Source: an uncultured Nitrospiraceae bacterium
Lineage (GTDB): Bacteria; Nitrospirota; Thermodesulfovibrionia; UBA6902
DNA length: 64,000 nucleotides
NCBI GenBank assembly: GCA_964393845.1
Contig: CAYMUX010000001.1
Coordinates: 17,556-81,555 of the forward strand
Reading direction: 5' to 3'
Part shown: positions 18,438-49,968 of the stretch, piece after piece
Layout of the letters: every line of letters starts with the position of its first letter
Numbering within the stretch: position 1 is the stretch's first letter
Translations under genes and position numbers: made by a program
Notes under the pieces: model-generated
Seen by the model: only the letters and a program-made list of their open reading frames with translations
Databases searched by the model: none
Told to the model about the DNA's origin: nothing

Positions 18438-20381
18438 ATGGGAATCAGCGATTTAAGAGAAAGAAGAATAATATTCTTGCTGTCAGCAGGGGTAATTACC
18501 GGTTCAATAATCGGGCTTATTACATCTTTTTATTTCATCCTGTCAAATCGGTATATCCAATATGAAATGTATAGAATAGCGGCTTTTGTTTTTCGAGAAA
18601 ATATGAATTACAGTATTCTCTTTACTCTTGTCGGATTTGCGGGATTGTATATGCTCTGGTTTCTGCTCGTAGAAAAAATAAAATTTAATAAAATAAAAGT
18701 TGAATATTTCTATAAATTGGTAATCGTTATTTCCTTTATATGTATAGTCACTGATTTATTACTTAGGGTATTCGTAGATATTCCTTTACTATACGGGCTA
18801 AAAGATTTATTAAGAATATCGCATCGGTTTCTGCTGGGGCCAATGACGTTCCAGAAATTATTAGATACGGTAAACTCATTTCTTACAGGTTACATTATTT
18901 TAATTTGCATTGGCGCTATTGCCGTTCCCATTATATATCGCTTGCTCAAGAGGTTACCAACGGAAAAATTATCAAACTGTGCACAAAAGAAATATTTTGC
19001 GCATTCAGCTCTTGTTTTAGGTGCTTTTATATTAGTTTTAAACTTGAGTATTGTTATCGATAGAAGGATAAATACTCAGGATGGACCAAATGTTATTTTT
19101 ATTGTTGTTGACGCCCTGCGGGCGGATCATATCAGTAATTATGGATACGACAGATTAACCAGCCCGAATATTGATAGCCTGATCAACGATGGAATAGTGT
19201 TTGAAAATGCTATTAGCCAAGGCAACATGACAACGCTTTCAATGCCTTCCATGTTTACGGGACTATATACATCGGATCACGGAGCTCATATGTTGCGAAA
19301 AATAGAAACCAGATTTGCTCCTGTAAGTGATAGATTCACTACTATCGCAGAAGTTTTTAATAATGCCGGTTATATTACACAGGCGGTATCATGTCAGCCG
19401 TGGGTTTCTCCTGAAACTGGCTATGGCCAGGGATTTGACAGCTTTGAAATAGTCAGCGATTCAAGTGATAACTTATCTGATCAGATAACTGTTGAAAGAG
19501 CGCTTGAATGGATAAATAAGAAATCAGGTAAGAAATTTTTTCTTTTCCTTAATCTAATGGGTCCACATACACCATATAATCCGCCGCCGCCATATGATAC
19601 CCTGTATTTCTCAGAATATAAAAATAAATCAAAATTGATTTCGGATTTGAATAATTTCTATTTGCAGCAGAATCACGGAGAATATTACAAATTATTAATG
19701 GATACTAAAGGGGAGAATATATCCAAAGACGAGTTGAATCAATTAATGTCTTTATATGACGGGAAAATAACCTACACCGACTATCAAATCGGCCGTTTGA
19801 TTGATAAGTTGAAAGCGTTGAATATTTATGACAATACCATGATAGTTTTGACTGCGGACCATGGAGAGGCCTTCCTTGAGCATGGTATGTTTTTACACGG
19901 CAGAAGTCTTTATAATGAAGAACTTCATGTTCCGCTTATTATGACTTATCCGAATAAATTACCAAAGGGAAGGAAAGTAAAAGATATCGTGGAACTTGTT
20001 GATATATTACCTACAATCGCAAGTGTCACAGGCATCCCTGTATCCGGAATAAAAATGCGTGGAGTATCTTTATATCCTATGACTGATAATTCTGATCGTT
20101 TTGTTTATAGCGAAGGGAGCGGTCGCGTGAAATACAGGACTGATAAATGGAGCCTTATTTGTGACAGCAGCGATTGGATTTGTGAGCTCTATGATTTGGA
20201 AAATGACCGCAGCGAATTAAATAACATAATAGAAAGCAATCATAATATTGCTTCTGAGATGAAAAAAGGACTTTTTAAAGTAGTTGATAATAAAATGTAT
20301 CCTTCGGTCAGCACTGTCAAGGCCAGGATAATCCCCGAGGAAACAGAGAAGACTTTAAAATCATTGGGCTATTTGCGATAG
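18438..20381 (+). CDS. Membrane-anchored sulfatase-fold (alkaline phosphatase superfamily) transferase with LtaS/EptA/OpgB-like architecture and a C-terminal LKSLGYLR tail
   Basis: About 5 N-terminal TM helices. PNVIFIVVDALRADH metal-binding block. TSPNIDSL. TADHGEAF ... HG. Nucleophile region TTLSMPSM (no C/S-x-P-x-R). Confidence 0.75.
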   Translation: MGISDLRERRIIFLLSAGVITGSIIGLITSFYFILSNRYIQYEMYRIAAFVFRENMNYSILFTLVGFAGLYMLWFLLVEKIKFNKIKVEYFYKLVIVISFICIVTDLLLRVFVDIPLLYGLKDLLRISHRFLLGPMTFQKLLDTVNSFLTGYIILICIGAIAVPIIYRLLKRLPTEKLSNCAQKKYFAHSALVLGAFILVLNLSIVIDRRINTQDGPNVIFIVVDALRADHISNYGYDRLTSPNIDSLINDGIVFENAISQGNMTTLSMPSMFTGLYTSDHGAHMLRKIETRFAPVSDRFTTIAEVFNNAGYITQAVSCQPWVSPETGYGQGFDSFEIVSDSSDNLSDQITVERALEWINKKSGKKFFLFLNLMGPHTPYNPPPPYDTLYFSEYKNKSKLISDLNNFYLQQNHGEYYKLLMDTKGENISKDELNQLMSLYDGKITYTDYQIGRLIDKLKALNIYDNTMIVLTADHGEAFLEHGMFLHGRSLYNEELHVPLIMTYPNKLPKGRKVKDIVELVDILPTIASVTGIPVSGIKMRGVSLYPMTDNSDRFVYSEGSGRVKYRTDKWSLICDSSDWICELYDLENDRSELNNIIESNHNIASEMKKGLFKVVDNKMYPSVSTVKARIIPEETEKTLKSLGYLR

Positions 20382-20385
20382 GATA

Positions 20386-22251
20386 TTGACATTGAAGAAA
20401 AAAATACCTGTCATTCTATTCCTGATAATCCTCTTTGCCCTTGCTCTGAGATTATACGGAATTAATTTTGATGTCCCCCATCCGGACGATTATATAACTG
20501 TTCAGGGGGCCATGTATTTTGGACCGGCGCACATTCCTCTCAACAGGTTTGGACTTTATGGTCTCTATGTATGGCCGGCATTTACCATGGTCTATATTCA
20601 ATCGGTCCTTTTTTCGCTGTATTTCCTTGTTGGAATGATATTGGGCATATTTCCGGATATAGAGAGTTTTAGAAATCTTTATCTTTCAGATCCATCAAGC
20701 TTTCATCTGATAGGCCGTATAATGAGTGTTTTATTTGGAATAAGTACTGTCTGGGTTTTATATTATCTGGGAAAAAGGTTATATAATCATAATGTCGGCT
20801 TGATGGCCGCACTTTTTCTTTCTGCAAGTTTTATTCACAGCTTCCATTCGCAATATATAAGGCCTGATATTCCTTCGACGTTTTTTTCTGTATTAGCGAT
20901 TTTGTATTGTCTCCTGATCCTGGAAAAAGGAGATTTGAAATTATATGTAATGGCAGGTGTTATGACAGGACTTGCTACAGCGACAAAATTTACATCAGCT
21001 GTTCTTATACTTCCGGTAATTGCAGCACATATTATGGCTGAAGGAAAAGAATTATCAAGCGATAAACATAAGACGAAGGCCAAAGAGCTGCTTCCTGTTA
21101 TCTTAATAATTTCCGGCGCTGTTATGTCGGCATTAAGCATGATGTTCATATTTAATTTAATTAGCCTGGATGGGGTACGCTTTTCTCCTCATGAAGAACT
21201 CAATCAAAAGGTCATTGTTTCCCTGAGGCTCTTAATAAAGGCCCTTGCCGTGCCGGGATTCTTTTTAATTATCGCGGGTGTTTTATGCAAGTGTTCAACT
21301 TCTGTAAGAAATATTACAGTTAACCTGTTGAGTAACAGAAAACTATTATTTAGTATGGCTGCCGCCTTTTTGAGTTTTATGGTTTTTGATCCTATTTTTT
21401 TCCTTGATATCAAAAATCAAATCCGGATATTTCTTACTGACGCTAATTACGGAGGCAAAAATGTCTATTTTATCGGCATAGAAAACCGGGGGTTTTTAGA
21501 TAATATCTGGTGGTATATTAAAGGGCCTATTAACTGGGGATCAGGGCTTCATATTGAGATCATGGCCGGACTTGGTCTATTGATTGTTCTAATCAGGAAA
21601 AGAAGAGAGGATTTGCTTGTCCTTTTGTTCCCGATGATCTTTCTTCTTGTTCTCGGGGCTGGTAAATATAAGTGGGAACGTTATGCAGTAACATTCATGC
21701 CTTTCGTAGCGTTATACGCCGCTTATTTTCTTTACTCTCTTACGGAGAAGATTTTTACATATAGAATGCAAGAGAACCAGAAGGCTGTTGTAACGGCATT
21801 CTTATCAATTATTCTTGTTTTGCCGATGACATACGATATCCTGCGCTATGATTACCTTCTTATCCATAAAGACACGAGGGTGACGGCCAAAGAGTGGGTG
21901 GAAAATAATATTGTTTACGGAAGCAAAATCGGGCAGGATGCATATACATGCGATCTTTCAGATGAAATCTACAAGATCACAAGAAAATATTCTTTAAGTG
22001 ATGTGCCTCTTAATTATTACATTGACAATAACTTTGAGTACTTGATAGTAAGTGATACACAATACAAGAGGTATATGGCGAACGCTTTGAAATATCCTGA
22101 AAACGTTAAGTTTTACACTTCACTTTTTTCGGAAGGAAAACTGATAAAAGAGATAGAGCCGGGAAATGATCTGTGGCCGAAACCCGATGAAAGGTTTTTA
22201 AAGTATCATATGCATGTTTCGCCTACAATAAAAATATATAAAATTAAATAA
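20386..22251 (+). CDS. GT-C-like polytopic membrane glycosyltransferase (PMT_2/DUF2723-like)
   Basis: N-terminal TM helix then a YGINFDVPHPDD loop. Many TM helices plus a C-terminal soluble domain. TTG start. Confidence 0.5.
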   Translation: MTLKKKIPVILFLIILFALALRLYGINFDVPHPDDYITVQGAMYFGPAHIPLNRFGLYGLYVWPAFTMVYIQSVLFSLYFLVGMILGIFPDIESFRNLYLSDPSSFHLIGRIMSVLFGISTVWVLYYLGKRLYNHNVGLMAALFLSASFIHSFHSQYIRPDIPSTFFSVLAILYCLLILEKGDLKLYVMAGVMTGLATATKFTSAVLILPVIAAHIMAEGKELSSDKHKTKAKELLPVILIISGAVMSALSMMFIFNLISLDGVRFSPHEELNQKVIVSLRLLIKALAVPGFFLIIAGVLCKCSTSVRNITVNLLSNRKLLFSMAAAFLSFMVFDPIFFLDIKNQIRIFLTDANYGGKNVYFIGIENRGFLDNIWWYIKGPINWGSGLHIEIMAGLGLLIVLIRKRREDLLVLLFPMIFLLVLGAGKYKWERYAVTFMPFVALYAAYFLYSLTEKIFTYRMQENQKAVVTAFLSIILVLPMTYDILRYDYLLIHKDTRVTAKEWVENNIVYGSKIGQDAYTCDLSDEIYKITRKYSLSDVPLNYYIDNNFEYLIVSDTQYKRYMANALKYPENVKFYTSLFSEGKLIKEIEPGNDLWPKPDERFLKYHMHVSPTIKIYKIK

Positions 22252-22269
22252 AAGTATAAGGAGACGACA

Positions 22270-23685
22270 ATGAAGTGTATATTAGCAATGCCGGCGTGGG
22301 ACCTTTCAGATTCCCACACCAAAGCCATGAGAAGTTCTGTTGCCGGAATATGGCCTCCGCCCGGACTGATGTCCATTGCAGCGGTCTTGAGAGAGGCGGG
22401 ACACGATGTTACTATTCTTGACGGTACCCTCCTTTCAGCAGAAGAGATATTGAAAGGCATCGACGATATTAAACCTGGGTTTCTGGGGATATCCTGTGTT
22501 TCTCTTATGTGGCCGAAGGCGAGGGACCTTGCGAAAGATGTGAAAGAAAAGCATCCTGATGTGTATATTGCGGTCGGCGGACCAGGCCCTTCTTATTTCC
22601 AGGAAAAGTGTTTTGAAGAATCCGGTGACATTGACGCGGTTTGCCTTAGAGAGGGAGAATATACCGCCAGGGAAATCGTGAAAAGACTGGAAAAGGGTGA
22701 AGGCATGGAGGGCTGCGAGGGGACGATAATAAGAACTAAAGAAGGGATCATACGCAATCCTGAAAGGCCCCTGATAGAGAATCTTGACGAGCTTCCACCT
22801 TATGCCCTTGATCTGCTTGATATGCATAAATATCGTCCGCCCGTGGGACATTACAGCAGGCTCCCTATCGCCCAGATGATGAGCGCGAGAGGGTGCCATC
22901 TCAAGTGCATATACTGCTACAGGGTAAACGGCAAGACCATACGGCTTAAATCAGCCAAAAACGTAGTGGATGAGATGGAGCACTATATCAAAAGATTCGG
23001 AGTAAGAGAGATAAAATTCTGGGATGATCTTTTCACATATGACAAACAAAGGGTCCTGGATATCTGCGATGAAATTAAAAAAAGAGGCCTTGATGTTACA
23101 TGGTTCTGTGCTTCGCGTGTGGACACAATCGATGAGATTATGCTGAAAAATATGGCTGAAGCCGGCTGCTGGTGTATTCTTTACGGCATTGAAACAGGGG
23201 TGCCCAAAAACCAGAAAACAATAAAGAAGAACCTGGACTTGTCGAGAGCGCAGGAGACTATACGGCTGACTCACAAATACGGGATAAAAACATTTGCCAC
23301 GTTTATACTGGGGATTCCCGGCGAAACTTACGAAGAGGGATTACAGACCATTGAATTCGCGAAGAAACTCGATCCTTTTTACGCCGAGTTCTTTACATTC
23401 ACTCCGTTCCCCGGATCGCCCGTATATGATGAAATCAGCAAACACGGAACGCTCAGCTCTAATCTTTCCGACATCGGCATGCACAGGATGGGCTTTGTCC
23501 CCTATTCCATGACCAGACAGCAGCTTGCCAAACTCTGCACGATGTCATACAGAAGCGTATACATGAGGCCGAAACATGTTTTGCGCATGCTTCTCAGCAT
23601 CAGGTCATGGCTGGAGCTGAAGAACATGTTCAGGGGGGCCGTGGGTATTTCAAACATGCTTTTCGGAAGACATACCTCTGAATAA
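22270..23685 (+). CDS. Cobalamin (B12)-binding domain radical SAM enzyme (second copy)
   Basis: B12-binding N-terminal region (AVLREAGHDVTILDG ... GISCVS ... VGGPG) then SARGCHLKCIYC (CxxxCxxC). Confidence 0.8.
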   Translation: MKCILAMPAWDLSDSHTKAMRSSVAGIWPPPGLMSIAAVLREAGHDVTILDGTLLSAEEILKGIDDIKPGFLGISCVSLMWPKARDLAKDVKEKHPDVYIAVGGPGPSYFQEKCFEESGDIDAVCLREGEYTAREIVKRLEKGEGMEGCEGTIIRTKEGIIRNPERPLIENLDELPPYALDLLDMHKYRPPVGHYSRLPIAQMMSARGCHLKCIYCYRVNGKTIRLKSAKNVVDEMEHYIKRFGVREIKFWDDLFTYDKQRVLDICDEIKKRGLDVTWFCASRVDTIDEIMLKNMAEAGCWCILYGIETGVPKNQKTIKKNLDLSRAQETIRLTHKYGIKTFATFILGIPGETYEEGLQTIEFAKKLDPFYAEFFTFTPFPGSPVYDEISKHGTLSSNLSDIGMHRMGFVPYSMTRQQLAKLCTMSYRSVYMRPKHVLRMLLSIRSWLELKNMFRGAVGISNMLFGRHTSE

Positions 23686-23695
23686 GGGATCAGAA

Positions 23696-25455: not shown

Positions 25456-25481
25456 TGTCACGCTATAGGATAGGGGATTAA

Positions 25482-27735: not shown

Positions 27736-29892
27736 ATGGGAATAAAGACCGGTTCCAGTTCAAGTTATTATAAGGATATCATTAAGTCGGTTGTAATTTG
27801 GACTTTGTGTATCTCCCTTTTTGAATCTTTTAAAATTACAATCAGCACTTCGGTGCGTTATATAGCGCCGTGGGATGTGTTTGTGATTTCTGTTGCCCTT
27901 TTCTTCACTTATTTGGTTATATGGGCGGCAGTCATGTTTCCGGCAGCTTTTTTGCTGAAGTCGTTTTTACAAAAAAGAGATATGTCTGAAGGAAGTCTGA
28001 CGACTATTTATTGCTCCGTAGCGCTGTTTTTGTATGAATTATTCTGGATTGTATATAAGTCCGCTTATGAAGGATTAACAAACACTTCCTACGGGGTGTT
28101 TTTTCCGTTGGCTCAATTAGTCCTTGCCGGTGTTATCGCATACGCTGTATTTCAACTTGCAGAGTTTCTCAGGAATAAGGGGCATCTGAAGCAGTTAGGG
28201 CTTAAATTATTCAGTTTATGGTTGACTGTCTTAGCTTACATGATGTTGAACATTTATTTGAAGTCATCCTTTGAACAGGGATTTAACTCGCTGTATTCTG
28301 TTTCACTCTTTGTATTATTTCTGGTGGTTTATAAAATATTGGTTGCCTTATTCAGAAAAGTCAGACTGAAATCTACCATGTCTGTTTTACTCCTGATTGT
28401 CACAAGAATAAAACTTTTTATAATCATCTCAGTTTCAGCAGCGCTTCTGTTTGGTTTTGCCTATTACGGCATGGCAAAAAAGACCGACATATCCTCAAGT
28501 CCTAATATCTTATTTATTTCAATCGATACCTTAAGGGCCGACCATCTCTCCTGTTACAGTGAAATCAAGGGGAAGACTTCACCTAACATTGACAGGATTG
28601 CTCAGAGCGGATATATATTTTCTAATGCGTATTCACCAACTACATGGACCCTTCCCGGACATGCTTCAATGATGACGGGTTTATTTCCTTCTTCCCATAA
28701 AGCGGACAGGAGCCTTCACCAGACATTAAGCCGTCCTGTAGATCCACTGTCTCCCTCTGTACTGACTCTTGCAGAAATCTTAAGAGAGAAAGGGTATCTG
28801 ACGGCCGGTATTATCAGCAACCCTTTCGTTTCCCGTTCATTCGGCATGGACCAGGGTTTCGAGTTTTATGATGATCAGGTGGATCTCTTCGAAGACGTGC
28901 GGTATTTATCATTGAAAGATGAATCAATGCTCTTTAAGCTTATCGAGATACTGAAGATAATTGATACAAACGATTATGATGGGGAGAGAAGAGTTGTGGA
29001 GGTAAATGAAAAGGCCTTCAGATGGCTTAACGATAACAAGGACAAGAAAGAACCCTTTTTTCTGTTTCTACACTACAATGAACCTCACTATAAATATGAA
29101 CCGCCGTCTCCATATAACAAAAACAGCGGCGGACGGGAGTTGCCTTATTTTGATGACATAGCGAGATTGAATAAAGGAGAATTTACTCTTAGTTCTTCAA
29201 GTCTAAAGGATATGCTGGATCTTTACGATGGAGAGATAACCTATCTGGACCATTACCTGGGATTGCTTTTTAATAAGCTTGATGATTGGCAGCTTCTAGA
29301 AAATACGGTTTTGATAATCACATCAGATCATGGAGAGAGTTTTAACGAGCATGAAGTATGGCAGCATGGAAACAGTTTATATGAAGAGCAGATTCGCGTA
29401 CCATTAATTATCCTCTATCCCAAATTAAAACCTGACGGCGTTATTAATAAAGATATTGTGCAAACTGTTGATTTGATGCCGACCGTTCTGGATCTTCTGA
29501 ACATCCCTGTCCCTGGAAATGTTCAGGGAAGAAGTCTTGTTCCCCTTCTAAAAGGAGAGACGGAACGCAACTTCAATCTCGCCTTTGCGGAAATTCGTCC
29601 GGACATTAACTGGAAGGCCCAAAACCCGAAATATGGAATTGGCATGAGAGCAGTGATTTATAAAGAGTGGAAGTATATTCAATCTGATGACGGAAAAGAA
29701 GAACTTTATAATTTAAGTGATGACCATAACGAAAATATTAATTTGATTCACAAAGAAAAAGAAAAAGCGGATGAAATTCGTAAAATATTAAACTCATGGT
29801 CAAGTGCCGTCACTCTTAATAATGGTGAAAAGCAGGAGAAAATAGACAGCGGCAGGCTGGAACAATTACGCTCGCTCGGGTATCTGAAGTAG
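27736..29892 (+). CDS. Membrane-anchored sulfatase-fold transferase (LtaS/OpgB-like) with C-terminal LRSLGYLK tail
   Basis: Multi-TM N-terminus. NILFISIDTLRADH. TSPNIDRIA. Nucleophile region WTLPGHASMMTG (Thr, His in place of Arg). TSDHGESF. Confidence 0.75.
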   Translation: MGIKTGSSSSYYKDIIKSVVIWTLCISLFESFKITISTSVRYIAPWDVFVISVALFFTYLVIWAAVMFPAAFLLKSFLQKRDMSEGSLTTIYCSVALFLYELFWIVYKSAYEGLTNTSYGVFFPLAQLVLAGVIAYAVFQLAEFLRNKGHLKQLGLKLFSLWLTVLAYMMLNIYLKSSFEQGFNSLYSVSLFVLFLVVYKILVALFRKVRLKSTMSVLLLIVTRIKLFIIISVSAALLFGFAYYGMAKKTDISSSPNILFISIDTLRADHLSCYSEIKGKTSPNIDRIAQSGYIFSNAYSPTTWTLPGHASMMTGLFPSSHKADRSLHQTLSRPVDPLSPSVLTLAEILREKGYLTAGIISNPFVSRSFGMDQGFEFYDDQVDLFEDVRYLSLKDESMLFKLIEILKIIDTNDYDGERRVVEVNEKAFRWLNDNKDKKEPFFLFLHYNEPHYKYEPPSPYNKNSGGRELPYFDDIARLNKGEFTLSSSSLKDMLDLYDGEITYLDHYLGLLFNKLDDWQLLENTVLIITSDHGESFNEHEVWQHGNSLYEEQIRVPLIILYPKLKPDGVINKDIVQTVDLMPTVLDLLNIPVPGNVQGRSLVPLLKGETERNFNLAFAEIRPDINWKAQNPKYGIGMRAVIYKEWKYIQSDDGKEELYNLSDDHNENINLIHKEKEKADEIRKILNSWSSAVTLNNGEKQEKIDSGRLEQLRSLGYLK

Positions 29893-29948: not shown

Positions 29949-32039
29949 TTGATTAATACAAGCAACGTAAATGAGAAAAGATATATAAGAGATATAGTCT
30001 TATTATTTTTTATTACCTTTACCATTTATTATTATGCCCTGATCAGTTTTTTTGTGGCTGAAGACCTGGTATGGATTTCACTTTTTAATCAAGTTGGTCT
30101 TAAGGATTTTTTTAAACTATATACACCGTTATCAAAGATCCCGGAGCAAGGCCCGGAGGCATTTATCAGGATTGTGACTATTGGTTTATGGGCATTTGAT
30201 TTCAATGTCTGGGGGCAAAATCCTTTTGGTTATCATTTGACTAATGTCAGTCTTCATTTTATAAATTCAGCTCTGCTTTATTTTATCGTTTATAAAAGCT
30301 CTGGGAACAGGTCTCTCGGCTTGTCCTCAGCTGTTCTTTTTTCAATTTTTCCCGGCAATGTCGAAGCAGTTGCGTGGATATGTGGAAGATTTGATGTTTT
30401 CAGCATATTTTTCTACCTATCTTCTCTTCTTCTCTTCATCATGTTTATTAGAGAAAAGAAAAGAATATTCTATTTTGTTTCTCTAACTGCAGCTTGCTTA
30501 GCTATATTGAGTAAAGAAATTGCTTATACTATTCCCTTCTCTATAATTTTATGGGATAGTTTTTTTGGGAGAGAATTCCGTAATGAAAAGATTCGTCAGC
30601 GGCTGTACTGGTATCTTCCATATTTCATGATGATGATTATCGCCCTTATCTGGCGCCTCTTTATTTTTAACGATGTGGGAGGTTATGGGGATGCAACAGG
30701 GAAATCGCTTCAGTTAACGAGTTACTTTAATAGATGGATTCTTGAGGGTCTGCTTATTAATTTCCCTTTAAGACTTATAGCGCCTTTTAATTATCAGGCA
30801 AATCAGACATATTGGTGGTATTTAGTAATAATTTTTTTAGCGTTCTTCGGTATTTTAATATTCTCAGCTTTCTTAAAAAAGAACATTCCAAAGGGACTTA
30901 TATTTTCTATATTGTTTATCTTTGTATCTATTTCTCCGGTATATAATATGTTGAATGGCGTAAGCCGTAATCTTCAGAGTTCCCGATTTCTATATCTGCC
31001 CTCTGCAGGATTTTGCATGGCTGTCAGTTACTTAATATTTCATGCTTTTAATGATACCCGTCTGCAAAAGAAACTAAAAACTGCCTCATTTGTTTTTTTA
31101 ATCGTAATTTATTCAATCACTGCTTTTCAGAACATAAAAATCTGGCATGAGTCATCTGATCTAGTCAGAGAAGTAACGGTCCAGGTCAAGAAACTCCATC
31201 CTTCCGTATCCGGGGATGCGCAGTTATTTTATCTTTTGCCATATGACATAAAAGGCTGGGTAATACCATTTAGCCCTGGTACCAGGGAGGTTACTTCATA
31301 TGCTTACAACTATTGGAAACCTAAAGGCTCATATGAAAATCTAAAAGAGAATGGTAATTTTAGCGCGTATTCTAAAGCATTCATAGATCAATATGTCAGG
31401 AACTATCCATTTGCCTCAACCATGTTATTAAACTATAACAATAAGACGAGAAATGAAACAATGAACAGGAAAATCCACGTTTCCAAGCTGTTAAAACATA
31501 TAAATCCTGACTCAAAAAATTATTTTTTATTATGGGATAAAGAAGAGCGCAGGCTTATAGACATTAGCGAAGAGTTTATGAATAACTTTACATCAAGGAC
31601 ACCCGTGCAGATTGATCATTATTCGATTCTGGATATGAATAATTTTGTCTACTGGAATATAGAATCTTTAAATGTAGAGAATGATAAAAATAATTTAAAA
31701 ATAATGTCAAACGGCAAAGGTATAAAACTGTCACGGTCCTTTCAAAATATTAATCCTCTGGATTTTGAGGAGATTGAAATAAAGGCCGGCGGCCATAGTA
31801 ATGGAAGAAAGCTTACAGCAATATTATCGTGGAATCAAACCAGGCCTGACAATTTATATGATAAGAAAGAATATCAGTTTGAGATTGTTATGGACAATGA
31901 ATTGAGAAGTTATCGGTTTAATTTAATAGATAATCTGGATTGGGCATTTGAAACAAATATCAGGGATATTGTTCTATCAACGAGCGATTTCGATGGGAAT
32001 TTGAGTATAGAGTGGATCAGGTTTAATAATAATATATGA
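29949..32039 (+). CDS. TMTC/DUF1736-like GT-C membrane glycosyltransferase
   Basis: NPFGYHLTNVSLHFINSALLYF ... PGNVEAVAWICGRFDV block characteristic of the DUF1736/PMT_2 region of TMTC-type O-mannosyltransferases. About 10 TM helices plus a C-terminal soluble domain of about 300 aa. TTG start. Confidence 0.55.
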   Translation: MINTSNVNEKRYIRDIVLLFFITFTIYYYALISFFVAEDLVWISLFNQVGLKDFFKLYTPLSKIPEQGPEAFIRIVTIGLWAFDFNVWGQNPFGYHLTNVSLHFINSALLYFIVYKSSGNRSLGLSSAVLFSIFPGNVEAVAWICGRFDVFSIFFYLSSLLLFIMFIREKKRIFYFVSLTAACLAILSKEIAYTIPFSIILWDSFFGREFRNEKIRQRLYWYLPYFMMMIIALIWRLFIFNDVGGYGDATGKSLQLTSYFNRWILEGLLINFPLRLIAPFNYQANQTYWWYLVIIFLAFFGILIFSAFLKKNIPKGLIFSILFIFVSISPVYNMLNGVSRNLQSSRFLYLPSAGFCMAVSYLIFHAFNDTRLQKKLKTASFVFLIVIYSITAFQNIKIWHESSDLVREVTVQVKKLHPSVSGDAQLFYLLPYDIKGWVIPFSPGTREVTSYAYNYWKPKGSYENLKENGNFSAYSKAFIDQYVRNYPFASTMLLNYNNKTRNETMNRKIHVSKLLKHINPDSKNYFLLWDKEERRLIDISEEFMNNFTSRTPVQIDHYSILDMNNFVYWNIESLNVENDKNNLKIMSNGKGIKLSRSFQNINPLDFEEIEIKAGGHSNGRKLTAILSWNQTRPDNLYDKKEYQFEIVMDNELRSYRFNLIDNLDWAFETNIRDIVLSTSDFDGNLSIEWIRFNNNI

Positions 32040-38462: not shown

Positions 38463-40526
38463 ATGACAGCTAAAAAATCTTTCATTTTACTCCAGCGAAT
38501 AATTTTTGTTTCATTTACATTAATATTCCTGAAAGTCGCTTTTTATAAATGGGATGGATATTCCTTTTATATGCGGTTTACAGATTTTCTGCCTGACCTG
38601 TCATTATCATTCATATTGTGGACAATCCCAGGCGTTTTTATTGCCTTTTTCTTATGGCTCATCGCATATGGAATTCACAAAACAATAAAAAGCGTTCCGC
38701 TTGAATACTCGATTGCCTGGATTATTATTATTATTATATTAACTGCAATCAGGCACATTTTCTTTGTTGACAGATTTAATAATAGCTTGACTGGTCTAAA
38801 TGATTTCACAACTTTGTTGATAAGCGGCATTTTATCAGGAGTTATTGTTTTCTTAATCAATAAACATACCGAAGCATTTCTCTCCGGGGTAAATACTCGC
38901 ATAACTCCTTTGGTCTGGCTTTTTGCTGTATTATTGGTAATTGCGTTGCCTTGCTCCGGATGGAGTGTCTTCAGAAAAGAACCTCCAACAGATAAGTACT
39001 TTAAGGATGACAGCGCTCATGCTTCTGGTCTCAATAAAAAAAGTCCCAATATAATTCTGGTAACATGGGATGCTTTAACTGCACTAGATATGGATTTGTA
39101 TGGATATGATAGACCTACCACGCCTTTTCTGTCTGAATGGGCCAAAGATGCGGTTGTATTTAAGCGGGCTTATTCTGCATCCAACTGGACAGTACCAGCC
39201 TCTATGAGTTTAATGACCGGACAAAGGGTCTGGACGCATAAGGTGTGGTATGATGCTTTAAATTCTCCAGTCAAAAATTATGCGAACAATTTACCTCATA
39301 TTTTGAAGGAAAACGGATACAATATTTATGGTTTAGTCCAGAATCCTCATGCTCACCCCGATACTTTAGGGATAGGACCAAATTTTTTAACAAAAGATCA
39401 TGCAACTAAATTTAATAAATTTTTAATCAGAGGTGAGTTTCATAGTATTAAAAAGTTTTTTGAAAAGAGGCCTATCATTATTAAATTTATGAAGAAATAC
39501 CCTTTTATATTTATTATGAAGAATGTTAAAAACCTGACTGAAAGAACTAATATGAAACAGTTTAAAAGTAATTTCATTGAAAGCGAAAAGAGAATCCAGA
39601 ATCAGCAATTAATTCAAAATACCGATGACAATCCCCGGAATGCGTATCCTCCGAAATTGGTCTATAATCGGTTTTTAAGATACATTTCATCTGGAAGTCA
39701 AAGGGCTGATGATAAACAGCTGCACAAACCTTTTTTTGCATGGCTTCATCTTTATCCTCCCCACGAGCCGTATCTTCCCCCGGAATCATACAGAGGTATA
39801 TTCGGTGGAGAAAGCAGTAAACCCGCTGATCTGAAATATACAGATGCGCCGGAAGACTTTGAGTATAAGCCTGAAGATCAACCGAGAGTAGATGCGTTAA
39901 GAAAGCGTTATGATGAATTCATATTATATTCGGACGAACAATTCAGGATTTTCATAAAGAGCCTCTCAAGAAAGATGGATTTATCCAACACGATAATTAT
40001 TTTCTCCGCAGATCATGGAGAAAGTTTCTCTCATGGGTATAAGGGGCATGTCGGTGATTATCTTTTTGAACAACTTGTTCATGTGCCGTTAATAATCAAA
40101 ATTCCAGGTGAAATTCCCGGTAAAGTAATAAATATGCCTGTTGAGCAGATAGACATTGCCCCGACTATTCTTGACCTGGCGGGTATTGCTGTTCCCCCCT
40201 GGATGGAAGGAAGATCTTTGTATCCCTTGATTGAAGGCAAATCACTGGAGCCCCGGCCCCTATTTTCAATGCAGCTTATTAAGAATCGATCCTTTGGTCA
40301 GCCGATTTCTACGGGTACTATATCGATATGGTATGGAGACTATAAGCTTATTTATTACTTAAAAAATAAAAAATCACTGCTCTTTAACCTCAGAGCTGAT
40401 CCTGAAGAAATACAAAATATATTTAACGATGAACCCGAGACAGCGAACAGGCTTTTGAAATTAATAGAAGTCAATCTTTCAGGCGCTAATAATAAGATTA
40501 CACAGTTCATTGAATATAATAATTAG
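38463..40526 (+). CDS. Divergent membrane-anchored sulfatase-fold protein (metal site altered, no LGY tail)
   Basis: Multi-TM N-terminus. NIILVTWDALTALDMD replaces the DTLRADH block. TTPFL. NWTVPASMSLMTG. SADHGESF. Ends ...FIEYNN. Confidence 0.65.
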   Translation: MTAKKSFILLQRIIFVSFTLIFLKVAFYKWDGYSFYMRFTDFLPDLSLSFILWTIPGVFIAFFLWLIAYGIHKTIKSVPLEYSIAWIIIIIILTAIRHIFFVDRFNNSLTGLNDFTTLLISGILSGVIVFLINKHTEAFLSGVNTRITPLVWLFAVLLVIALPCSGWSVFRKEPPTDKYFKDDSAHASGLNKKSPNIILVTWDALTALDMDLYGYDRPTTPFLSEWAKDAVVFKRAYSASNWTVPASMSLMTGQRVWTHKVWYDALNSPVKNYANNLPHILKENGYNIYGLVQNPHAHPDTLGIGPNFLTKDHATKFNKFLIRGEFHSIKKFFEKRPIIIKFMKKYPFIFIMKNVKNLTERTNMKQFKSNFIESEKRIQNQQLIQNTDDNPRNAYPPKLVYNRFLRYISSGSQRADDKQLHKPFFAWLHLYPPHEPYLPPESYRGIFGGESSKPADLKYTDAPEDFEYKPEDQPRVDALRKRYDEFILYSDEQFRIFIKSLSRKMDLSNTIIIFSADHGESFSHGYKGHVGDYLFEQLVHVPLIIKIPGEIPGKVINMPVEQIDIAPTILDLAGIAVPPWMEGRSLYPLIEGKSLEPRPLFSMQLIKNRSFGQPISTGTISIWYGDYKLIYYLKNKKSLLFNLRADPEEIQNIFNDEPETANRLLKLIEVNLSGANNKITQFIEYNN

Positions 40527-42360: not shown

Positions 42361-42396
42361 CAGCGATTCATATTCAAATTCTTAGATAGATATGCC

Positions 42397-44794: not shown

Positions 44795-45716
44795 CCTGGT
44801 AACGATCTTAAAAGTCCTCGTATCCGGTGTCCTTCTATACCTGATTTCTAAAGAAATTGACTGGAGCCAGTTAATCGTTTCCATAAAGCAGGGACGATTC
44901 ATTTATCTGTTTATCGGGATAATTTTAGGATGCGGATTTAACGTGGTAAAATTTATCAAGTGGCATTATCTGATAAGGACAGGAGACCATAATTATTCAT
45001 TTCTAGATGGAGTAAAATCTTACATGATCGGCAATAGCCTGGGCTTGATCACGCCTATGCGCGCCGGCGACCTCGGCAGGGCCCTGTATTTTCATGTGGA
45101 CGACCGTCCCAGGATCATAGGGCTTACGGTCATGGACAGATTTACCGAGCTTGTTGCTGTTCTGGCTCTCTCTATCGGAGGATGTTTTGTCCTTCTGAAT
45201 AAAGGAGTGGGAATGATCGTCGTATCGCTTGCCTTCTTTGGTATTTTATCGCTTTATGCTGCCGGGTTCCTCCATGGGATAGTTAAAAGAATTATTCCGG
45301 ATGGAAGGATTGGCGGGAAAATAATAAAATTGATGGATATCTTAAGATTACTGGACAAAAATACTGTATCTATTGTTCTGCTACTTTCATTTGTCGCATT
45401 TGTGTTGTGTATTATACAGTTCTACTTTCTCATAATTGCATTCGAGAAAATATCATTGTCATCCGTGTTTCTGGCTACCCCATTAGTGACACTCTCTTCG
45501 ATACTCCCTGTGAGTATTATGGGGCTTGGGGTCCGGGAAGGAATTTCAATTGTCCTTCTTGCAAAATTCAATATATCTGCTGCAACGGCTGTCTCCGCGG
45601 CTTTTCTTTTTTTCCTGATAAATAATGTTTCAATAAGCGGTATTGGAATTTATTATCTGTCAAAGGTTAGAATAAAAACTCAAACTCAAGAGGCAAACTG
45701 TGAATTTAAGATTTAA
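44784..45716 (+). CDS. Flippase-like / lysylphosphatidylglycerol-synthase-TM-region family membrane protein
   Basis: LVSGVLLYLISKEIDW ... NSLGLITPMRAGDLGRALYF, typical of the PF03706-type flippase-like domain. About 8 TM helices. Confidence 0.55.
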   Translation: MKNNLVTILKVLVSGVLLYLISKEIDWSQLIVSIKQGRFIYLFIGIILGCGFNVVKFIKWHYLIRTGDHNYSFLDGVKSYMIGNSLGLITPMRAGDLGRALYFHVDDRPRIIGLTVMDRFTELVAVLALSIGGCFVLLNKGVGMIVVSLAFFGILSLYAAGFLHGIVKRIIPDGRIGGKIIKLMDILRLLDKNTVSIVLLLSFVAFVLCIIQFYFLIIAFEKISLSSVFLATPLVTLSSILPVSIMGLGVREGISIVLLAKFNISAATAVSAAFLFFLINNVSISGIGIYYLSKVRIKTQTQEANCEFKI

Positions 45717-47817
45717 TCGATTTTTAAATATAAAAAGACATCTGCTTACAGGTATCCTTGCTTTATTTCTGATATGCTGCGCAGATTATGCCTTTGCATA
45801 TATCGGTCCCGGTGCGGGCTTTGCACTGGTAACATCGTTTTTTGTAATATTTGTTTCTCTAATTATCGCTTTCGTTTCATTCCTCATATGGCCGTTCCGG
45901 CATATCAGGTGGATGTTTTTAAGGAAAAAACGAGACAGAAAAACGGATGTCAAAAAAGTGGTTGTATTAGGTCTTGATGGTATGGATCCCTGTATTGCCG
46001 AAAAATTTATGGCAGAAGGGAAACTGCCGAATTTTCAGAAGCTGAAAGACACAGGATGCTTTTCGAGACTTCGCACAACATTCCCCGCTGTGTCGCCGGT
46101 CGCATGGTCTTCATTTGCAACGTCTGTCTACCCTGGGAAACATAATATCTTTGATTTCCTCACTCCGAACAGAAACTATTATATAGCCGATTTATCTTCC
46201 GTTCATATAGGCACGGTAAAACGCAATCTGAAAATTGGTAAATACAAGATACCCTTGGGAAAGCCGGAGATCAAACTGCACCGGAAGAGTCAAACTTTCT
46301 GGAAGGTGCTGGGTGAATACGGGATTTTCAGTACGATCTTGAGAGTGCCTATAACGTTCCCGCCGGAAAAATTTTTCGGCAATTGCCTTTCCGCAATGTG
46401 CATTCCCGACCTGAAAGGAACGCAAGGTTCTTTTACTTACTATACGTCTGACTCAAAACAAACAGGCGAGATGTACGAAGGCGAAAGAATCTTCGTAGAA
46501 AATAATAACGGAACAATTACAAGTTATTTCCCCGGTCCGGCCAATCCTATATTGATAGAGGAAGCGCCGTTAAGAATCCCCTTTAAAGTGGAAGTGAAAG
46601 ATCCCGACAACGCGGTCCTGCATCTCCCTGATCAAAAAATAAAATTGAGGCGCGGACATTACTCCGACTGGATCAAGCTGCGTTATAACTTAGGCCTGGG
46701 CATGAAAATATCAGGCATTGCAAGGGTATTGATTAAATCTTTTCAGCCGCACTTTTCAATGTACGTAACTCCGATTAATATCGATCCGGAAAAGCCCGTT
46801 CTTCCCATTTCTCATCCCGGTATATTTTCGGTGTACCAGGCCAAGCTGCATGGAAGTTTTTCTACGCTCGGACTTTCCGAAGATACATGGGCCCTTAACG
46901 AACGAATTATAGATGAGGATGATTTTATTAAACAGGCTTACGATATTCATGAAGAGCGGGAAAAGATGTTTATGCATGCGTTGAAGAGTACCAGCCAGGG
47001 ACTTGTAGTCTCTGTTTTCGATATAACGGACCGCATGCAGCATATGTTTATCCGGTTCCTGTATGATGACCATCCTGCCGTCAAGGACGCAGATGTCAAG
47101 AAGTACAGGAATGTAGTTGAGGACCTCTATGTTAATATGGACAAGCTTCTGGAAAAAACGCTGAGTTCTCTGGACGATGATACGGTCTTATTCGTTATCT
47201 CAGATCATGGCTTTAAACCTTTCATGTGGGGTTTTCACGTAAATTCCTGGTTACACAAAGAGGGCTATATGGTCTTGAAATCGGGAGACGAGAGCAAAGC
47301 CTGGTTTGAAAATGTCGACTGGAGCAAAACAAGGGCTTATTGCCTCGGAATGGCAGGCATCTATATTAATATCAAAGGCCGCGAAGCTAAGGGGATCGTT
47401 GCCAGGGATGGTGAAGAAGCTGAATTAAGAAAAGAAATTAAAGAAAAACTTGTCAAATTTATAAACCCGGCGACAAATCAGCCTGTGCTGAATGATGTCT
47501 TCGATTCAAAAGAGATTTTTTCAGGCCCGTATAAAGAAAACGCCCCTGATCTGATCCTGGGATACAACGAAGGGTACAGGGTTTCCTGGGATGCTGCGAT
47601 AGGAAAGGTCACAAAAGATATTATTGAGGATAACACAAAGAGCTGGAGCGCCGACCACTGCATTGACCCGCGATTGGTGCCGGGGGTGCTTTTTTCAAAC
47701 AGAAAAATTAATTCCGACAGCCCGTCAATCGTTGATATGGGCGCAACCATTTTAAACCTTTTCGGTATCAACCCACCGGCTTATATGGACGGAAAGAATA
47801 TTTTAGAGGAAAAATGA
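45700..47817 (+). CDS. Membrane-anchored type I phosphodiesterase/nucleotide pyrophosphatase-fold (alkaline phosphatase superfamily) protein
   Basis: Two N-terminal TM helices. VVLGLDGMDP. TTFPAVSPVAWSSFATSVYPGKHNIFDF (NPP-like Thr nucleophile block T-F-P ... TG-x-YP-x-HGI). ISDHGF. Confidence 0.7.
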   Translation: MNLRFNRFLNIKRHLLTGILALFLICCADYAFAYIGPGAGFALVTSFFVIFVSLIIAFVSFLIWPFRHIRWMFLRKKRDRKTDVKKVVVLGLDGMDPCIAEKFMAEGKLPNFQKLKDTGCFSRLRTTFPAVSPVAWSSFATSVYPGKHNIFDFLTPNRNYYIADLSSVHIGTVKRNLKIGKYKIPLGKPEIKLHRKSQTFWKVLGEYGIFSTILRVPITFPPEKFFGNCLSAMCIPDLKGTQGSFTYYTSDSKQTGEMYEGERIFVENNNGTITSYFPGPANPILIEEAPLRIPFKVEVKDPDNAVLHLPDQKIKLRRGHYSDWIKLRYNLGLGMKISGIARVLIKSFQPHFSMYVTPINIDPEKPVLPISHPGIFSVYQAKLHGSFSTLGLSEDTWALNERIIDEDDFIKQAYDIHEEREKMFMHALKSTSQGLVVSVFDITDRMQHMFIRFLYDDHPAVKDADVKKYRNVVEDLYVNMDKLLEKTLSSLDDDTVLFVISDHGFKPFMWGFHVNSWLHKEGYMVLKSGDESKAWFENVDWSKTRAYCLGMAGIYINIKGREAKGIVARDGEEAELRKEIKEKLVKFINPATNQPVLNDVFDSKEIFSGPYKENAPDLILGYNEGYRVSWDAAIGKVTKDIIEDNTKSWSADHCIDPRLVPGVLFSNRKINSDSPSIVDMGATILNLFGINPPAYMDGKNILEEK

Positions 47818-49760
47818 AAAATAACTTTTTTACTTCAGGCCTGATATTTATTTTAATAATAATTTCTTTTACCGCTGCTGTTGCAGGGGACAAGAAATTT
47901 ATCATACTCGGGATTGATGGTATGGATTACACCATGTTGAGCGAGATGATAGAACGGGGTGAAATGCCCAATTTTGCAAAATTCAGGGAGTCAGGGGATT
48001 TTAAGCCGCTTTTAAGCAGCATCCCGCCACAAAGCCCGGTCGCCTGGTCGAATTTTATCACAGGGATGGACCCCGGCGGACATGGTATTTTTGATTTTAT
48101 TCACAGAACGCCCGAAGATCTTCTTCCTTACCTTTCTACTTCAAAAACCGAATCACCGTCAAAAGTTCTTTCTATCGGGAAATACCGGATACCTTTAAAA
48201 AGCGAAGAGATAAAATTATTGAGAAAAGGGAAACCTTTCTGGGATATTCTTGAAGAACACGGGGTCCCTACAACGATTATTTCAATTCCCGCGAATTTTC
48301 CGTCAATCAAAAGCGCCGGACGCTCTCTGTCCGGGATGGGAACACCGGATATCCTGGGCTCTTATGGCTCATTCACCTATTTAACATCGGACCCGAAGGA
48401 CAGAGACAAAAAGGTAACCGGCGGCGTAATACATTCAGTTGAAGTCAGAGACAATCAGGTCGATAGTTTTATTCCGGGACCGGCTAATACACTTGTCGAG
48501 GGCAGGCCTTCAACGCGAATTGACGTTAAGACGTATATTGATCCGGAGAACAGTGTTGCAAAAATTGTGGTCAACGGTAACGATATCCTGTTATCCAAAG
48601 GGGAATGGAGCGAGTTTGTCCGGATCAAATTTGAGATGATACCCCATATAGTCAGTGTTTCAGGGATCGTCCGGTTTTATTTAAAAGAAGTCCATCCTTA
48701 TTTTAAACTCTATATTTCCCCGGTCAATATTGATCCCTCTGATCCTGCCATGCCGATTTCAAACCCCGAAGATTATGCAAAAGAATTATATAAGAACATC
48801 GGCTTTTTTTATACTCAGGGGATATCGGAAGATACAAAGGCGCTTGATAACGGCATCTTGTCGGAGGATGAATTTCTGCAGCAGGCCCAGGTCGTGCTGA
48901 GAGACAGGCTGAAGATTCTTGATTATGAATTGAAGAGGTTTAAAAAGGGGCTGCTCTTTTTTTATATTTCTACTATAGATACGAGCAGTCACATGTTCTG
49001 GCGATATATTGCAAAGGACCATCCTGACTATAACACCGAGGAGTACAAAAAATACCGGAATGTCATGTATGACCTCTATAAGAGAATGGACGTTATTCTG
49101 GCCGATGTCCTTAAGCGCGTTGATGATAATACTGTTGTCATGATCATGTCGGACCACGGGTTCGCGGATTTTCAATGGCAGGTGAACATTAATTCATGGC
49201 TGGCAAAAGAAGGGTATATAGCAATGCTGCCCGACTGGACGCCTGAACAGGAATATTTTGAATCAGTGAAATGGTCCGGGACAAAGGCGTATGCGCTCGG
49301 CATCAACGGATTATATATCAATCTCAGAGACCGGGAACTGCACGGCATAGTCGGCCCCGGCAGCGAATATAAAAATCTTGTCGATGAAATAGCTTCAAAA
49401 CTGGAAGCGATGACAGACCCGAAAACCGGAAAGCGGGTCATAAGACAAGCGTTTAAAAAGGATGAGGCATATCATGGTTCCTCCATGGATAACGCTCCGG
49501 ACATAGTCGTCGGTTTTTACCGCGGCTATCGTTCCTCTGATGAAAGCGCGCTCGGTCAGTTTTCCAGAGATATCATAATCGAAAATACAAGAAAATGGGG
49601 CAGTGATCATTGCATGGATTACCGCGAGGTCCCGGGGATTGTTCTTGTAAATAAAAAAATAACTCTGAAAGAACCGGAGCTTTATGATATTGCGCCCACA
49701 ATTCTTAAAGAGTTCGGTATCGATCCTTTACCGGAAATGGTTGGGAAATCCATCTATTAG
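47814..49760 (+). CDS. Membrane-anchored type I phosphodiesterase/NPP-fold protein, tandem paralog
   Basis: Signal/anchor. FIILGIDGMDY. PPQSPVAWSNFITGMDPGGHGIFDF. MSDHGF. Confidence 0.7.
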   Translation: MKNNFFTSGLIFILIIISFTAAVAGDKKFIILGIDGMDYTMLSEMIERGEMPNFAKFRESGDFKPLLSSIPPQSPVAWSNFITGMDPGGHGIFDFIHRTPEDLLPYLSTSKTESPSKVLSIGKYRIPLKSEEIKLLRKGKPFWDILEEHGVPTTIISIPANFPSIKSAGRSLSGMGTPDILGSYGSFTYLTSDPKDRDKKVTGGVIHSVEVRDNQVDSFIPGPANTLVEGRPSTRIDVKTYIDPENSVAKIVVNGNDILLSKGEWSEFVRIKFEMIPHIVSVSGIVRFYLKEVHPYFKLYISPVNIDPSDPAMPISNPEDYAKELYKNIGFFYTQGISEDTKALDNGILSEDEFLQQAQVVLRDRLKILDYELKRFKKGLLFFYISTIDTSSHMFWRYIAKDHPDYNTEEYKKYRNVMYDLYKRMDVILADVLKRVDDNTVVMIMSDHGFADFQWQVNINSWLAKEGYIAMLPDWTPEQEYFESVKWSGTKAYALGINGLYINLRDRELHGIVGPGSEYKNLVDEIASKLEAMTDPKTGKRVIRQAFKKDEAYHGSSMDNAPDIVVGFYRGYRSSDESALGQFSRDIIIENTRKWGSDHCMDYREVPGIVLVNKKITLKEPELYDIAPTILKEFGIDPLPEMVGKSIY

Positions 49761-49776
49761 TTTGTGAGGAGGTCAT

Positions 49777-49968
49777 GTGTTTGGTCCAAAAATAAAACTC
49801 TCAAAAGATTTATATGAAAAGGTAAAACAGCTCGCTGAACTCTCCGGTTATTCATCCGTTGATGAATTTGTTGTGCATGTCCTGGAGAAAGAGATAACAA
49901 AGATCAATCAGGATGACGATGAAGAAAAAGTCAAAGAGCGTCTAAAAGGTCTGGGGTATATTTCATAA
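49777..49968 (+). CDS. Small ribbon-helix-helix-like protein (63 aa) ending in the LKGLGYIS tail shared with the sulfatase-fold paralogs
   Basis: KIKLSKDLYEKVKQLAELSGYSSVDEFVVHVLEKEI resembles a CopG/ParD-type RHH (beta strand plus two helices). C-terminal ERLKGLGYIS. Confidence 0.5.
   Translation: MFGPKIKLSKDLYEKVKQLAELSGYSSVDEFVVHVLEKEITKINQDDDEEKVKERLKGLGYIS

Follow-up and report, generated by a model that had tools for sequence, protein, structure and literature searches.

The window analysed here, a stretch of 64,000 nucleotides from contig CAYMUX010000001.1 of an uncultured Nitrospiraceae bacterium, is a large glycoconjugate island that encodes GT2 and GT4 proteins, flippases, B12-radical SAM proteins, methyltransferases and deacetylases. 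Six open reading frames (ORFs) of its plus strand end with the octapeptide pattern L-[KR]-x-L-G-Y-[IL]-x, directly followed by the stop codon. Five of them encode the paralogous sulfatase-fold membrane proteins S1 to S5, and the sixth encodes a 63-residue protein (the 63-aa protein) with a predicted ribbon-helix-helix (RHH) fold (Table 1). Our re-translation reproduced the ORFs, positions and stops of all six tails as described in an earlier note on this DNA, as well as the absence of the tail from the divergent paralog S6, which ends in the decayed version ..KITQFIEYNN, and from both NPP-fold proteins, N1 and N2. We describe below this C-terminal element, hereafter called the LGY tail, as a widespread and apparently undescribed C-terminal helix.

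Table 1. Position of the LGY tails, of the genes that carry or lack them and of other genes of the window (TM, transmembrane; AF2, AlphaFold2)
Feature	Position	Strand	Description	Basis
S1	18438..20381	+	Multi-TM N-terminal region and sulfatase-fold domain with Thr-type nucleophile site	Pfam (Sulfatase, 4.6e-56; SGSH_C), translation
S2	27736..29892	+	S1 paralog	Translation, Pfam, paralog alignment
S3	32036..33925	+	S1 paralog	Translation, Pfam, AF2 model
S4	34055..36172	+	S1 paralog	Translation, Pfam, paralog alignment
S5	36228..38390	+	S1 paralog	Translation, Pfam, homolog search
S6	38463..40526	+	Divergent S1 paralog with decayed tail	Alignment of paralogs
S1 tail, LKSLGYLR	20355-20378	+	Stop codon directly after	
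S2 tail, LRSLGYLK	29866-29889	+	Stop codon directly after	
S3 tail, LKSLGYIK	33899-33922	+	Stop codon directly after	
S4 tail, LKSLGYIK	36146-36169	+	Stop codon directly after	
S5 tail, LKTLGYIQ	38364-38387	+	Stop codon directly after	
S6 decayed tail, TQFIEYNN	40500-40523			
N1	45700..47817	+	NPP-fold protein without tail, gene 1 of the module N1-N2-RHH-M27x	Pfam (Phosphodiest), 83 loci
N2	47814..49760	+	NPP-fold protein without tail, signal-peptide-like N-terminus, gene 2 of the module	
63-aa protein	49777..49968	+	Predicted RHH fold, acidic linker, C-terminal helix	AF2 model, Foldseek, relatives
63-aa protein tail, LKGLGYIS	49942-49965	+	Stop codon directly after	
M27x	49971..50795	+	274-aa membrane protein, gene 4 of the module	
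PMT_2 (GT-C) genes	8744-12108, 16757-18391, 20386-22251, 29949-32039, 52811-54448		Seven glycosyltransferase paralogs	
B12-binding radical SAM genes	5167-6669, 22270-23685			
Polysaccharide-deacetylase-like gene	59765-60712		Internal LGY copy at 60203	

The six tails resemble each other as peptides and not as DNA. Over the 21 nucleotides encoding the seven conserved residues, the pairwise identities of the six segments are of 9-18 out of 21, against 4-7 out of 7 at the amino-acid level. Conservation is therefore at the peptide level, as the earlier note had proposed, and these identities rule out a DNA-level repeat or gene conversion as the source of the tails. Scanning the six frames of the 64 kb for LGY[ILVM] returned 11 occurrences, 6 of which close a long plus-strand ORF, with a single residue between them and the stop. 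Only five matches are non-terminal; one of them, found inside a polysaccharide-deacetylase-like protein (..DMLIRLGYLVDSS..), is probably due to chance.

All S paralogs, S6 included, follow the same domain order, in which the N-terminal multi-TM region precedes the Pfam Sulfatase domain (1e-47 to 5e-56) and then SGSH_C. The tail-bearing paralogs share 29-34% identity overall with S1, and S6 shares 26%. At the nucleophile position, where the earlier note expected a Cys or a Ser, the paralog alignment displays an invariant Thr within T-x-x-[STA]-H in place of C/S-x-P-x-R. Because of this invariant Thr (T-x-x-S-H) and of the missing C/S-x-P-x-R, S1 to S6 are not formylglycine sulfatases; they do have the fold with a C-terminal subdomain that characterizes the formylglycine sulfatases of the S1 family (Pfam and Foldseek). 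The LtaS-like fold suggested in the earlier note was not recovered either. Using Foldseek, the nearest folds of the S3 catalytic domain were those of S1-family sulfatases (E around 1e-23), choline sulfatase, dimeric arylsulfatases and phosphonate monoester hydrolases (PMH), LtaS and EptA not being among the nearest, and all NCBIfam matches of S1 to S6, including LtaS, EptA and MCR, were far under cut-off.

The AF2 model of S3 (mean pLDDT of 80.7) comprises 5 TM helices and a confident catalytic domain whose last core helix spans residues 584-609. The pLDDT drops below 50 at residues 609-611, after which a tail helix is modelled at residues 616-625, followed by GYIK, the whole block having a pLDDT of 79-87. 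The tail helix thus extends past the end of the core at residue 609. Alignments with solved sulfatases of the PDB broke off at residue 411-424 of the S3 query, which has 445 residues, that is 20-35 residues short of its end, and we deduced that the tail is an addition to the canonical sulfatase fold. It also lies C-terminal to the Pfam SGSH_C match. Regarding topology, a crude vote based on hydropathy and on the positive-inside rule over 75 multi-TM homologs, with TM counts of 4-10, placed the catalytic domain outside in 42 and inside in 33. The positive-inside rule, read by hand on S3 and on one homolog, suggests that the catalytic domains of S1 to S5 are outside the cytoplasm. Membrane-anchored transferases of the LtaS/EptA type, from the alkaline phosphatase superfamily, combine some 5 N-terminal TM helices with an extracytoplasmic domain bearing a Thr nucleophile; S3 has 5 modelled TM helices and the Thr, but its nearest folds and NCBIfam scores point elsewhere and the topology vote is divided.

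The divergent paralog S6 presents several other changes. In its tail the Gly is replaced by Glu and the Ile/Leu by Asn, the R-A-D-H motif that follows the first metal-binding Asp is absent, and about 60 residues are inserted. Judging from its sequence, S6 may be a pseudo-enzyme.

The tail is not a peculiarity of this locus. A profile was built from the five catalytic domains and used to search 50%-identity cluster representatives, of which 209,328 matched at E <= 1e-3. Among the best 150 of these representatives, 118 have LGY[ILVMF] followed by 0-2 residues as their C-terminus, and most of the remaining 32 carry near-variants of the tail. Likewise, a check of 104 newly returned homologs of S5 detected it in 88. 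The Gly and the Tyr are invariant in an alignment of 74 sequences. The active-site motif could be located in 131 sulfatase-fold sequences, none of which has C/S-x-P-x-R; the bearers among them exhibit T/S-x-x-[STAG]-H at the nucleophile position, with Thr nearly always and Ser in two cases. All the relatives retrieved belong to uncultured bacteria represented by metagenome-assembled or single-cell genomes. Judged by these sequences, the tail is the mark of a very large, uncharacterised clade of putative Thr-type sulfatase-like enzymes. Their fold is closest to that of the true sulfatases despite T-x-x-[STA]-H.

The earlier note had envisaged two ways in which the tail might turn out to be trivial. 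The first was that it could be generic and part of the catalytic fold: it is indeed generic for the Thr-type subfamily, but it lies beyond the region that aligns with solved sulfatases. The second was that it could be an unstructured cytoplasmic remnant lacking conservation outside the locus; the tail is in fact strongly conserved elsewhere and recurs on unrelated folds.

Comparison across families extended the octapeptide into the consensus [YF]-[ST]-x-[ED]-[ED]-x-x-phi-x-x-R-L-[KR]-x-L-G-Y-[ILV], after which the chain continues for 0-2 residues. This motif of 16-18 residues is near-identical from one fold to another, reading for instance EYSAEEEEKIKQRLRDLGYI in an APS kinase and EYSAEESAIVEQRLKDLGYIE in an NPP-fold protein. 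The chain ends on a polar residue that varies (R, K, Q, S, E or D). From the sequences and the models we infer that the octapeptide closes an amphipathic helix of about 14 residues that has a cap at either end. The N-terminus of this helix would be capped by the Ser/Thr and the acidic residues, and the invariant Gly would provide a Schellman-type C-cap, with the Tyr and the Ile/Leu/Val folding back as hydrophobic anchors. In the Schellman, or alpha-L, C-cap, a Gly occupies position C' after the helix and a hydrophobic contact is established between C3 and C''. The tail conforms to this scheme, with its Gly at C', a Leu at C3 and the Tyr at C''. The Schellman motif covers the local geometry, but not the conservation over 16-18 residues, the fixed spacing and the restriction to certain families.

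The position of the tail relative to the catalytic domain is constrained. In 113 of 114 diverged sulfatase-fold bearers the tail is located 41-50 residues past DPxExxN, and in 15 of 16 NPP-fold bearers 57-66 residues past DxAPTxL; the linker before the tail varies in sequence though the spacing is fixed. In tandem two-domain proteins the motif is found after each domain, the internal copy being at equal spacing. Solved APS kinases end natively in the motif (8a8h with ..KLGYL and 7yq0 with ..ELGYL), which indicates that a folded domain can have this motif at the end of its last helix, and the native end of CysD is ..KLRSLGYM.

Occurrences of the tail on other folds were gathered from two samples. 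The first comprised 83 loci of the 63-aa gene (1.17 Mb), in which a six-frame scan detected 120 tail-ending ORFs: 82 from the 63-aa family, 11 APS kinases with an appended tail, 8 from a second RHH-like family, 12 sulfatase-fold, 2 NPP-fold, 2 DUF2061, 1 CysD and one unassigned. The second was obtained by scanning metagenomes with a DNA pattern for R/S-L-K-x-L-G-Y-I-x-TAA, which favours AT-rich genomes and Lys/Ile variants. At least 120 loci were recovered, and about 93 of the 120 matches listed end real ORFs. According to blastp and ORF lengths, these real ORFs include 25 sulfatase-fold proteins, up to 25 NPP-fold proteins (a blastp count comprising some small RHH-like ORFs matched via the tail only), about 35 small RHH-like proteins in at least 5 subfamilies, two PhnC-like ABC ATPases, two DUF2061 proteins and a single APS kinase, besides a few isolated cases. 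The 1863 complete ORFs of at least 200 aa of all loci contain 50 internal and 94 C-terminal copies of the motif, where the internal rate would predict 0.37 C-terminal ones, an enrichment that is overstated since the metagenome loci were chosen by their tail, the genome loci being chosen otherwise. The bearers span proteins without signal peptide, lipoproteins and multi-TM proteins, and many NPP-fold or sulfatase-fold bearers begin at the catalytic domain; the tail module is therefore independent of the cellular compartment. No Pfam or NCBIfam model matching the tail-bearing proteins covers the tail, and our literature searches found no mention of the tail strings or of an 'LGY' C-terminal motif. 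A literature search on DUF2061 found nothing relevant, and the one paper found to mention the CysD-CysN complex is silent on the C-terminus of CysD.

In the cases examined, tail-bearing genes outside the alkaline phosphatase (AP) superfamily typically adjoin tail-less AP-fold genes or sulfate-activation genes. The APS kinases located by the four-gene module of the 63-aa gene (L001, at 3831-4442, and L025, L030, L033, L034, L037, L039, L046, L049, L053 and L082) contain two copies of the helix: a native ..LELMGYI is followed by an acidic linker of about 15 residues and by a second copy, ..RLRDLGYI. Linker and tail are nearly identical to those of NPP-fold enzymes (EYSAEE...), a sequence likeness which suggests that the second tail is the captured 3' end of a neighbouring gene. 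A tail-ending PhnC-like ABC ATPase is found in L100 (2042-7926) and L194, within an operon that also encodes PhnD, PhnE, a protein with an HD domain and a tail-less fusion, the latter being a cytoplasmic sulfatase-fold/NTP-transferase protein; a tail-bearing RHH-like gene is near in L194, and the RHH2-like ORF of L100 was not flagged as tail-bearing. Finally, in L089, L158, L162 and L188, a CysD ending in ..KLRSLGYM adjoins small RHH-like genes ending in ..RLKALGYI[SD]. The superfamily of RHH proteins with an LGY tail seems to be tied to sulfate-activation operons generally.

The AF2 model of the 63-aa protein (mean pLDDT of 88.5) has helices at residues 10-23 and 28-43 and, beyond an acidic linker, another helix at residues 49-59 that leads into GYIS. 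Its RHH part matched NikR, ParD, FitA and Arc using Foldseek, with a probability of 0.99 for the NikR RHH domain, and VapB was also among the fold matches. The G-Y-S-S turn, which fits the G-x-S/T turn of this strand-helix-helix fold, is invariant in the family. The Pfam RHH_1 model scored 17.4 bits, below its cut-off of 20.5. Based on the model, the protein is assigned to the RHH (CopG/Arc/MetJ) fold and may, like members of that group, bind specific DNA sequences as a dimer. Neither a hydrophobic segment nor a signal peptide was detected in it. The search retrieved 435 relatives (E <= 0.01), and among the best 120 all but two, 118, end with L-x-G-L-G-Y-[IL]-S. The protein is encoded in at least 547 species-representative genomes belonging to many phyla. 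The closest relative is a Nitrospirae metagenome-assembled genome (L007).

In the 83 loci, the 63-aa gene is nearly always found after two NPP-fold genes and before a gene for a membrane protein, the products having about 700, 650, 63 and 272 aa, respectively. In the window, the stop of N2 lies 16 nucleotides upstream of the 63-aa gene. M27x, which matched no Pfam or NCBIfam family, has its counterpart directly after the 63-aa gene in nearly every locus extending that far. This nearly constant flanking by two NPP-fold genes and a membrane-protein gene shows that the 63-aa protein belongs to the module and not to the S paralogs, and its closeness to the latter in the window reflects a shared envelope island. 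A tail-bearing sulfatase-like gene is located directly upstream of the module in about 10 of the 83 loci. In other genomes the module often has genes for sulfotransferase-like proteins, ATP sulfurylase and APS kinase as neighbours. To all appearances, this four-gene module (45700-50795 in the window; loci L001 and L003-L086) is uncharacterised.

Two particularities of the module deserve mention. The N-terminus of N1 (45700-45900 in the window, 5788-6000 in L001) displays in succession a signal-like hydrophobic segment, the conserved motif A-Y-I-G-P-G-A-G, another hydrophobic segment and a stretch rich in Arg. Applied to N1, the positive-inside rule would make its NPP domain cytoplasmic, unlike that of N2 with its ordinary signal peptide; literature searches found no mention of the A-Y-I-G-P-G-A-G motif. 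In an Entotheonella locus (L011, 7991-10192), N2 and the RHH gene form a single in-frame ORF of 733 aa, the RHH part of which keeps its own Shine-Dalgarno sequence and ATG. This ORF could be a real fusion or the result of a lost stop codon.

Elsewhere in the island, the PMT_2 and B12-radical SAM genes are interleaved with the sulfatase-like paralogs, resulting in an unusually paralog-rich envelope-modification island.

We favour, with moderate confidence, the interpretation of the LGY tail as a C-terminal docking or oligomerisation arm of a subgroup of the AP superfamily, by analogy with characterized members. In S1 to S5, the tail helix is a subgroup-specific extension held at a fixed distance behind the last core helix. 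We propose that it packs against a defined surface, which would belong either to a partner protomer or to the domain that carries the tail. The partner protomer might be a paralog, the tails being interchangeable. In the 63-aa protein, the same helix placed behind the RHH domain would serve higher-order assembly or partner binding. A docking arm fits with the fixed spacing (113 of 114), the conservation throughout the subgroup (118 of the best 150; 88 of 104), the position after the core and the retention of both tails in tandem proteins. The tandem two-domain bearers are in effect covalent dimers. Besides, a role intrinsic to the protein fits with the distribution of the tail over proteins without signal peptide, lipoproteins and multi-TM proteins. 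Of the three interpretations put forward in the earlier note, the shared docking motif is plausible and comes near to this reading, while the sorting signal and the PDZ ligand were given up for the reasons detailed below.

The analogy relies on choline sulfatase, PMH and the dimeric arylsulfatases, in which subgroup-specific C-terminal extensions dock on the other protomer and lead to oligomerisation, whereas the monomeric PAS is devoid of C-terminal extension (PMC5870055). Deleting 12 C-terminal residues lowered kcat/KM by 20- to 2500-fold (PMC5870055). These enzymes are among the closest relatives of S1 to S5 in sequence and fold, and SmCS, PMH and SpAS1/2 share with them a conserved subgroup extension behind the last core helix. 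They also differ from S1 to S5 in having a formylglycine instead of the Thr, and PMC5870055 describes neither an LGY-like helix nor a recurrence on other folds.

Known proteins of other folds can also be compared with the tail bearers. RHH repressors and antitoxins employ C-terminal segments for assembly or partner binding, as exemplified by the tetramerisation helix of Mnt. The 63-aa protein has a similar organisation, with an N-terminal RHH part, a linker and a C-terminal helix, but no toxin gene adjoins its own, which is fixed in an operon whose other genes encode the two NPP-fold proteins and the membrane protein. APS kinases (8a8h, 7yq0, 2gks) and CysD likewise terminate with phi-x-x-L-x-x-L-G-Y-[LI] and the chain end; the helix is integral to the domain in these proteins, whereas it is an add-on behind a variable linker in the tail bearers, and the L001-type APS kinases possess the native copy plus the appended one.

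Several observations weigh against the proposed arm. The segment before the tail helix is variable and often of low complexity, which is more reminiscent of a tether than of a fold. SmCS and PMH have longer arms, of about 60 residues in the case of SmCS, with no sequence relationship to the LGY tail, so that the analogy is functional only. A family-intrinsic role leaves unexplained the same module on RHH-like proteins, APS kinase, DUF2061 and PhnC-like ATPase. Lastly, the contact of the tail with another protomer is proposed by analogy, the AF2 models being of monomers.

The recurrence on unrelated proteins is what a portable docking tag would account for. According to this alternative, which is possible if unlikely, proteins of one pathway would bind through their tails to a common site, most plausibly an AP-superfamily surface that tail-bearing enzymes fill with their own tail, thereby assembling hetero-complexes or coupling a regulator to the abundance of an enzyme. 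Docking peptides shared by unrelated enzymes are well known, for instance those for encapsulin cargo loading, microcompartment encapsulation and binding to the beta-clamp. Like the LGY tail, these are short terminal peptides, often helical, located behind a flexible linker on co-encoded enzymes of different folds; unlike them, the tail is accompanied by no evident shell, clamp or receptor gene, and several tail bearers are membrane-integral or exported. The composition of both samples speaks for a tag: the bearers outside the 63-aa family in the 83 neighbourhoods include APS kinase, the second RHH-like family, sulfatase-fold and NPP-fold proteins, DUF2061 and CysD, and nearly all the real ORFs among the metagenome matches listed are sulfatase-fold, NPP-fold or RHH-like. 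So does the near-identity of the extended motif across folds, as do the gene neighbourhoods, since the RHH gene lies by N1 and N2, the tail-bearing APS kinase between the short NPP-fold genes NPPs1 and NPPs2, and the tail-bearing PhnC-like gene by the sulfatase-NTP-transferase fusion, all these AP partners being tail-less. Moreover, an RHH part with acidic linker and C-terminal helix is the architecture of antitoxins, the tails of which bind a partner. On the other hand, most stand-alone tail-bearing AP enzymes of the metagenome sample have no RHH-like gene in the sampled flank. In the window itself, the S1-S5 domains would be extracytoplasmic by the positive-inside reading of S3 and one homolog and the 63-aa protein has no signal peptide, in which case they would have no common partner.

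A broader variant combines both ideas, and we consider it rather improbable. The LGY tail would be a docking module of about 18 residues through which AP enzymes dock mutually, and which RHH-like proteins, APS kinase, PhnC-like ATPases and DUF2061 would have acquired for tail-less AP partners such as N1 and N2.

Conversely, the tail might be a purely intramolecular structural cap that arose by convergence, its family resemblance having no functional meaning. The last helix of solved APS kinases and the end of CysD, which coincide with the motif, are in line with such a cap, as are isolated thioredoxin-like and other folds in which the motif resembles a native last helix, the fairly high pLDDT of the tail in both AF2 monomer models, and the family-specific residue at position -2, which suggests vertical inheritance. 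We regard it as doubtful all the same, because about 85% of the real ORFs among the metagenome matches listed fall into three fold classes only, the likeness spans 16-18 residues including the N-cap and the acidic turn, and the second copy of the L001-type APS kinases, behind its acidic linker of about 15 residues, is hard to square with a cap.

A membrane-surface amphipathic helix of the MinD/FtsA type, on either membrane face, is highly unlikely: an acidic linker does precede a basic and hydrophobic helix, the mechanism is workable in both compartments and many bearers act in envelope pathways, but with a hydrophobic moment of 0.10-0.45 and a net charge between -1 and +2 the tail is weaker than the targeting sequences of MinD and FtsA by the same calculation, the invariant Gly-Tyr and the fixed spacing are atypical, and many bearers already are multi-TM. 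The tail is thus not the strongly amphipathic, net-cationic helix expected of that type.

Equally poor prospects are given to a signal for sorting or processing, to a degron and to a modification of the Tyr such as sulfation, despite the invariant Tyr, the closeness of the motif to the chain end (at most two residues away in most bearers) and the presence of ATP sulfurylase, APS kinase and sulfotransferase-like genes next to the module in many genomes, given that the bearers have every localisation, that internal copies exist in tandem proteins and that the last residue is variable and polar. The kinship with PEP-CTERM or LPXTG suggested in the earlier note amounts to a short C-terminal signature on many otherwise unrelated proteins. 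It does not go further: the stop lies one residue past GY[IL] in the six genes, no TM helix, basic cluster or basic anchor stands behind the motif, and bearers without signal peptide, cytoplasmic bearers and internal copies occur. Among the ORFs of the window, to which this search was limited, Pfam revealed no sortase, exosortase, PDZ protease or other peptidase, and no PAPS-synthesis gene was found there. The PDZ-ligand-like tail of the earlier note is equally at odds with a polar and variable last residue, with the 0-2 residues past GY[ILV] and with the internal copies. The same features disfavour a C-terminal degron, for which the chain should end freely, in a constant register and on a hydrophobic residue.

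Enzymes of the AP superfamily are known to have C-terminal extensions that serve assembly; the cross-family recurrence of the LGY tail is, as far as our literature searches went, undescribed. The motif and its fixed spacing supply a simple sequence rule for recognising a clade that databases now label only 'sulfatase' or 'arylsulfatase A-like'. The presence of the tail on RHH-like proteins, APS kinase and transporter ATPases also offers a concrete entry point for tests on a four-gene module that is conserved, in at least 547 species genomes, but unstudied. If the tail is an oligomerisation arm, the five paralogs of the window could form mixed assemblies, which are conceivable because the tails of S1 to S5 are interchangeable, and this would bear on the decoration of envelope glycoconjugates. 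Should the docking-module reading be true, the tail would point to an unrecognised mode of assembly or feedback for phosphate- and sulfate-ester pathways in many uncultured phyla.

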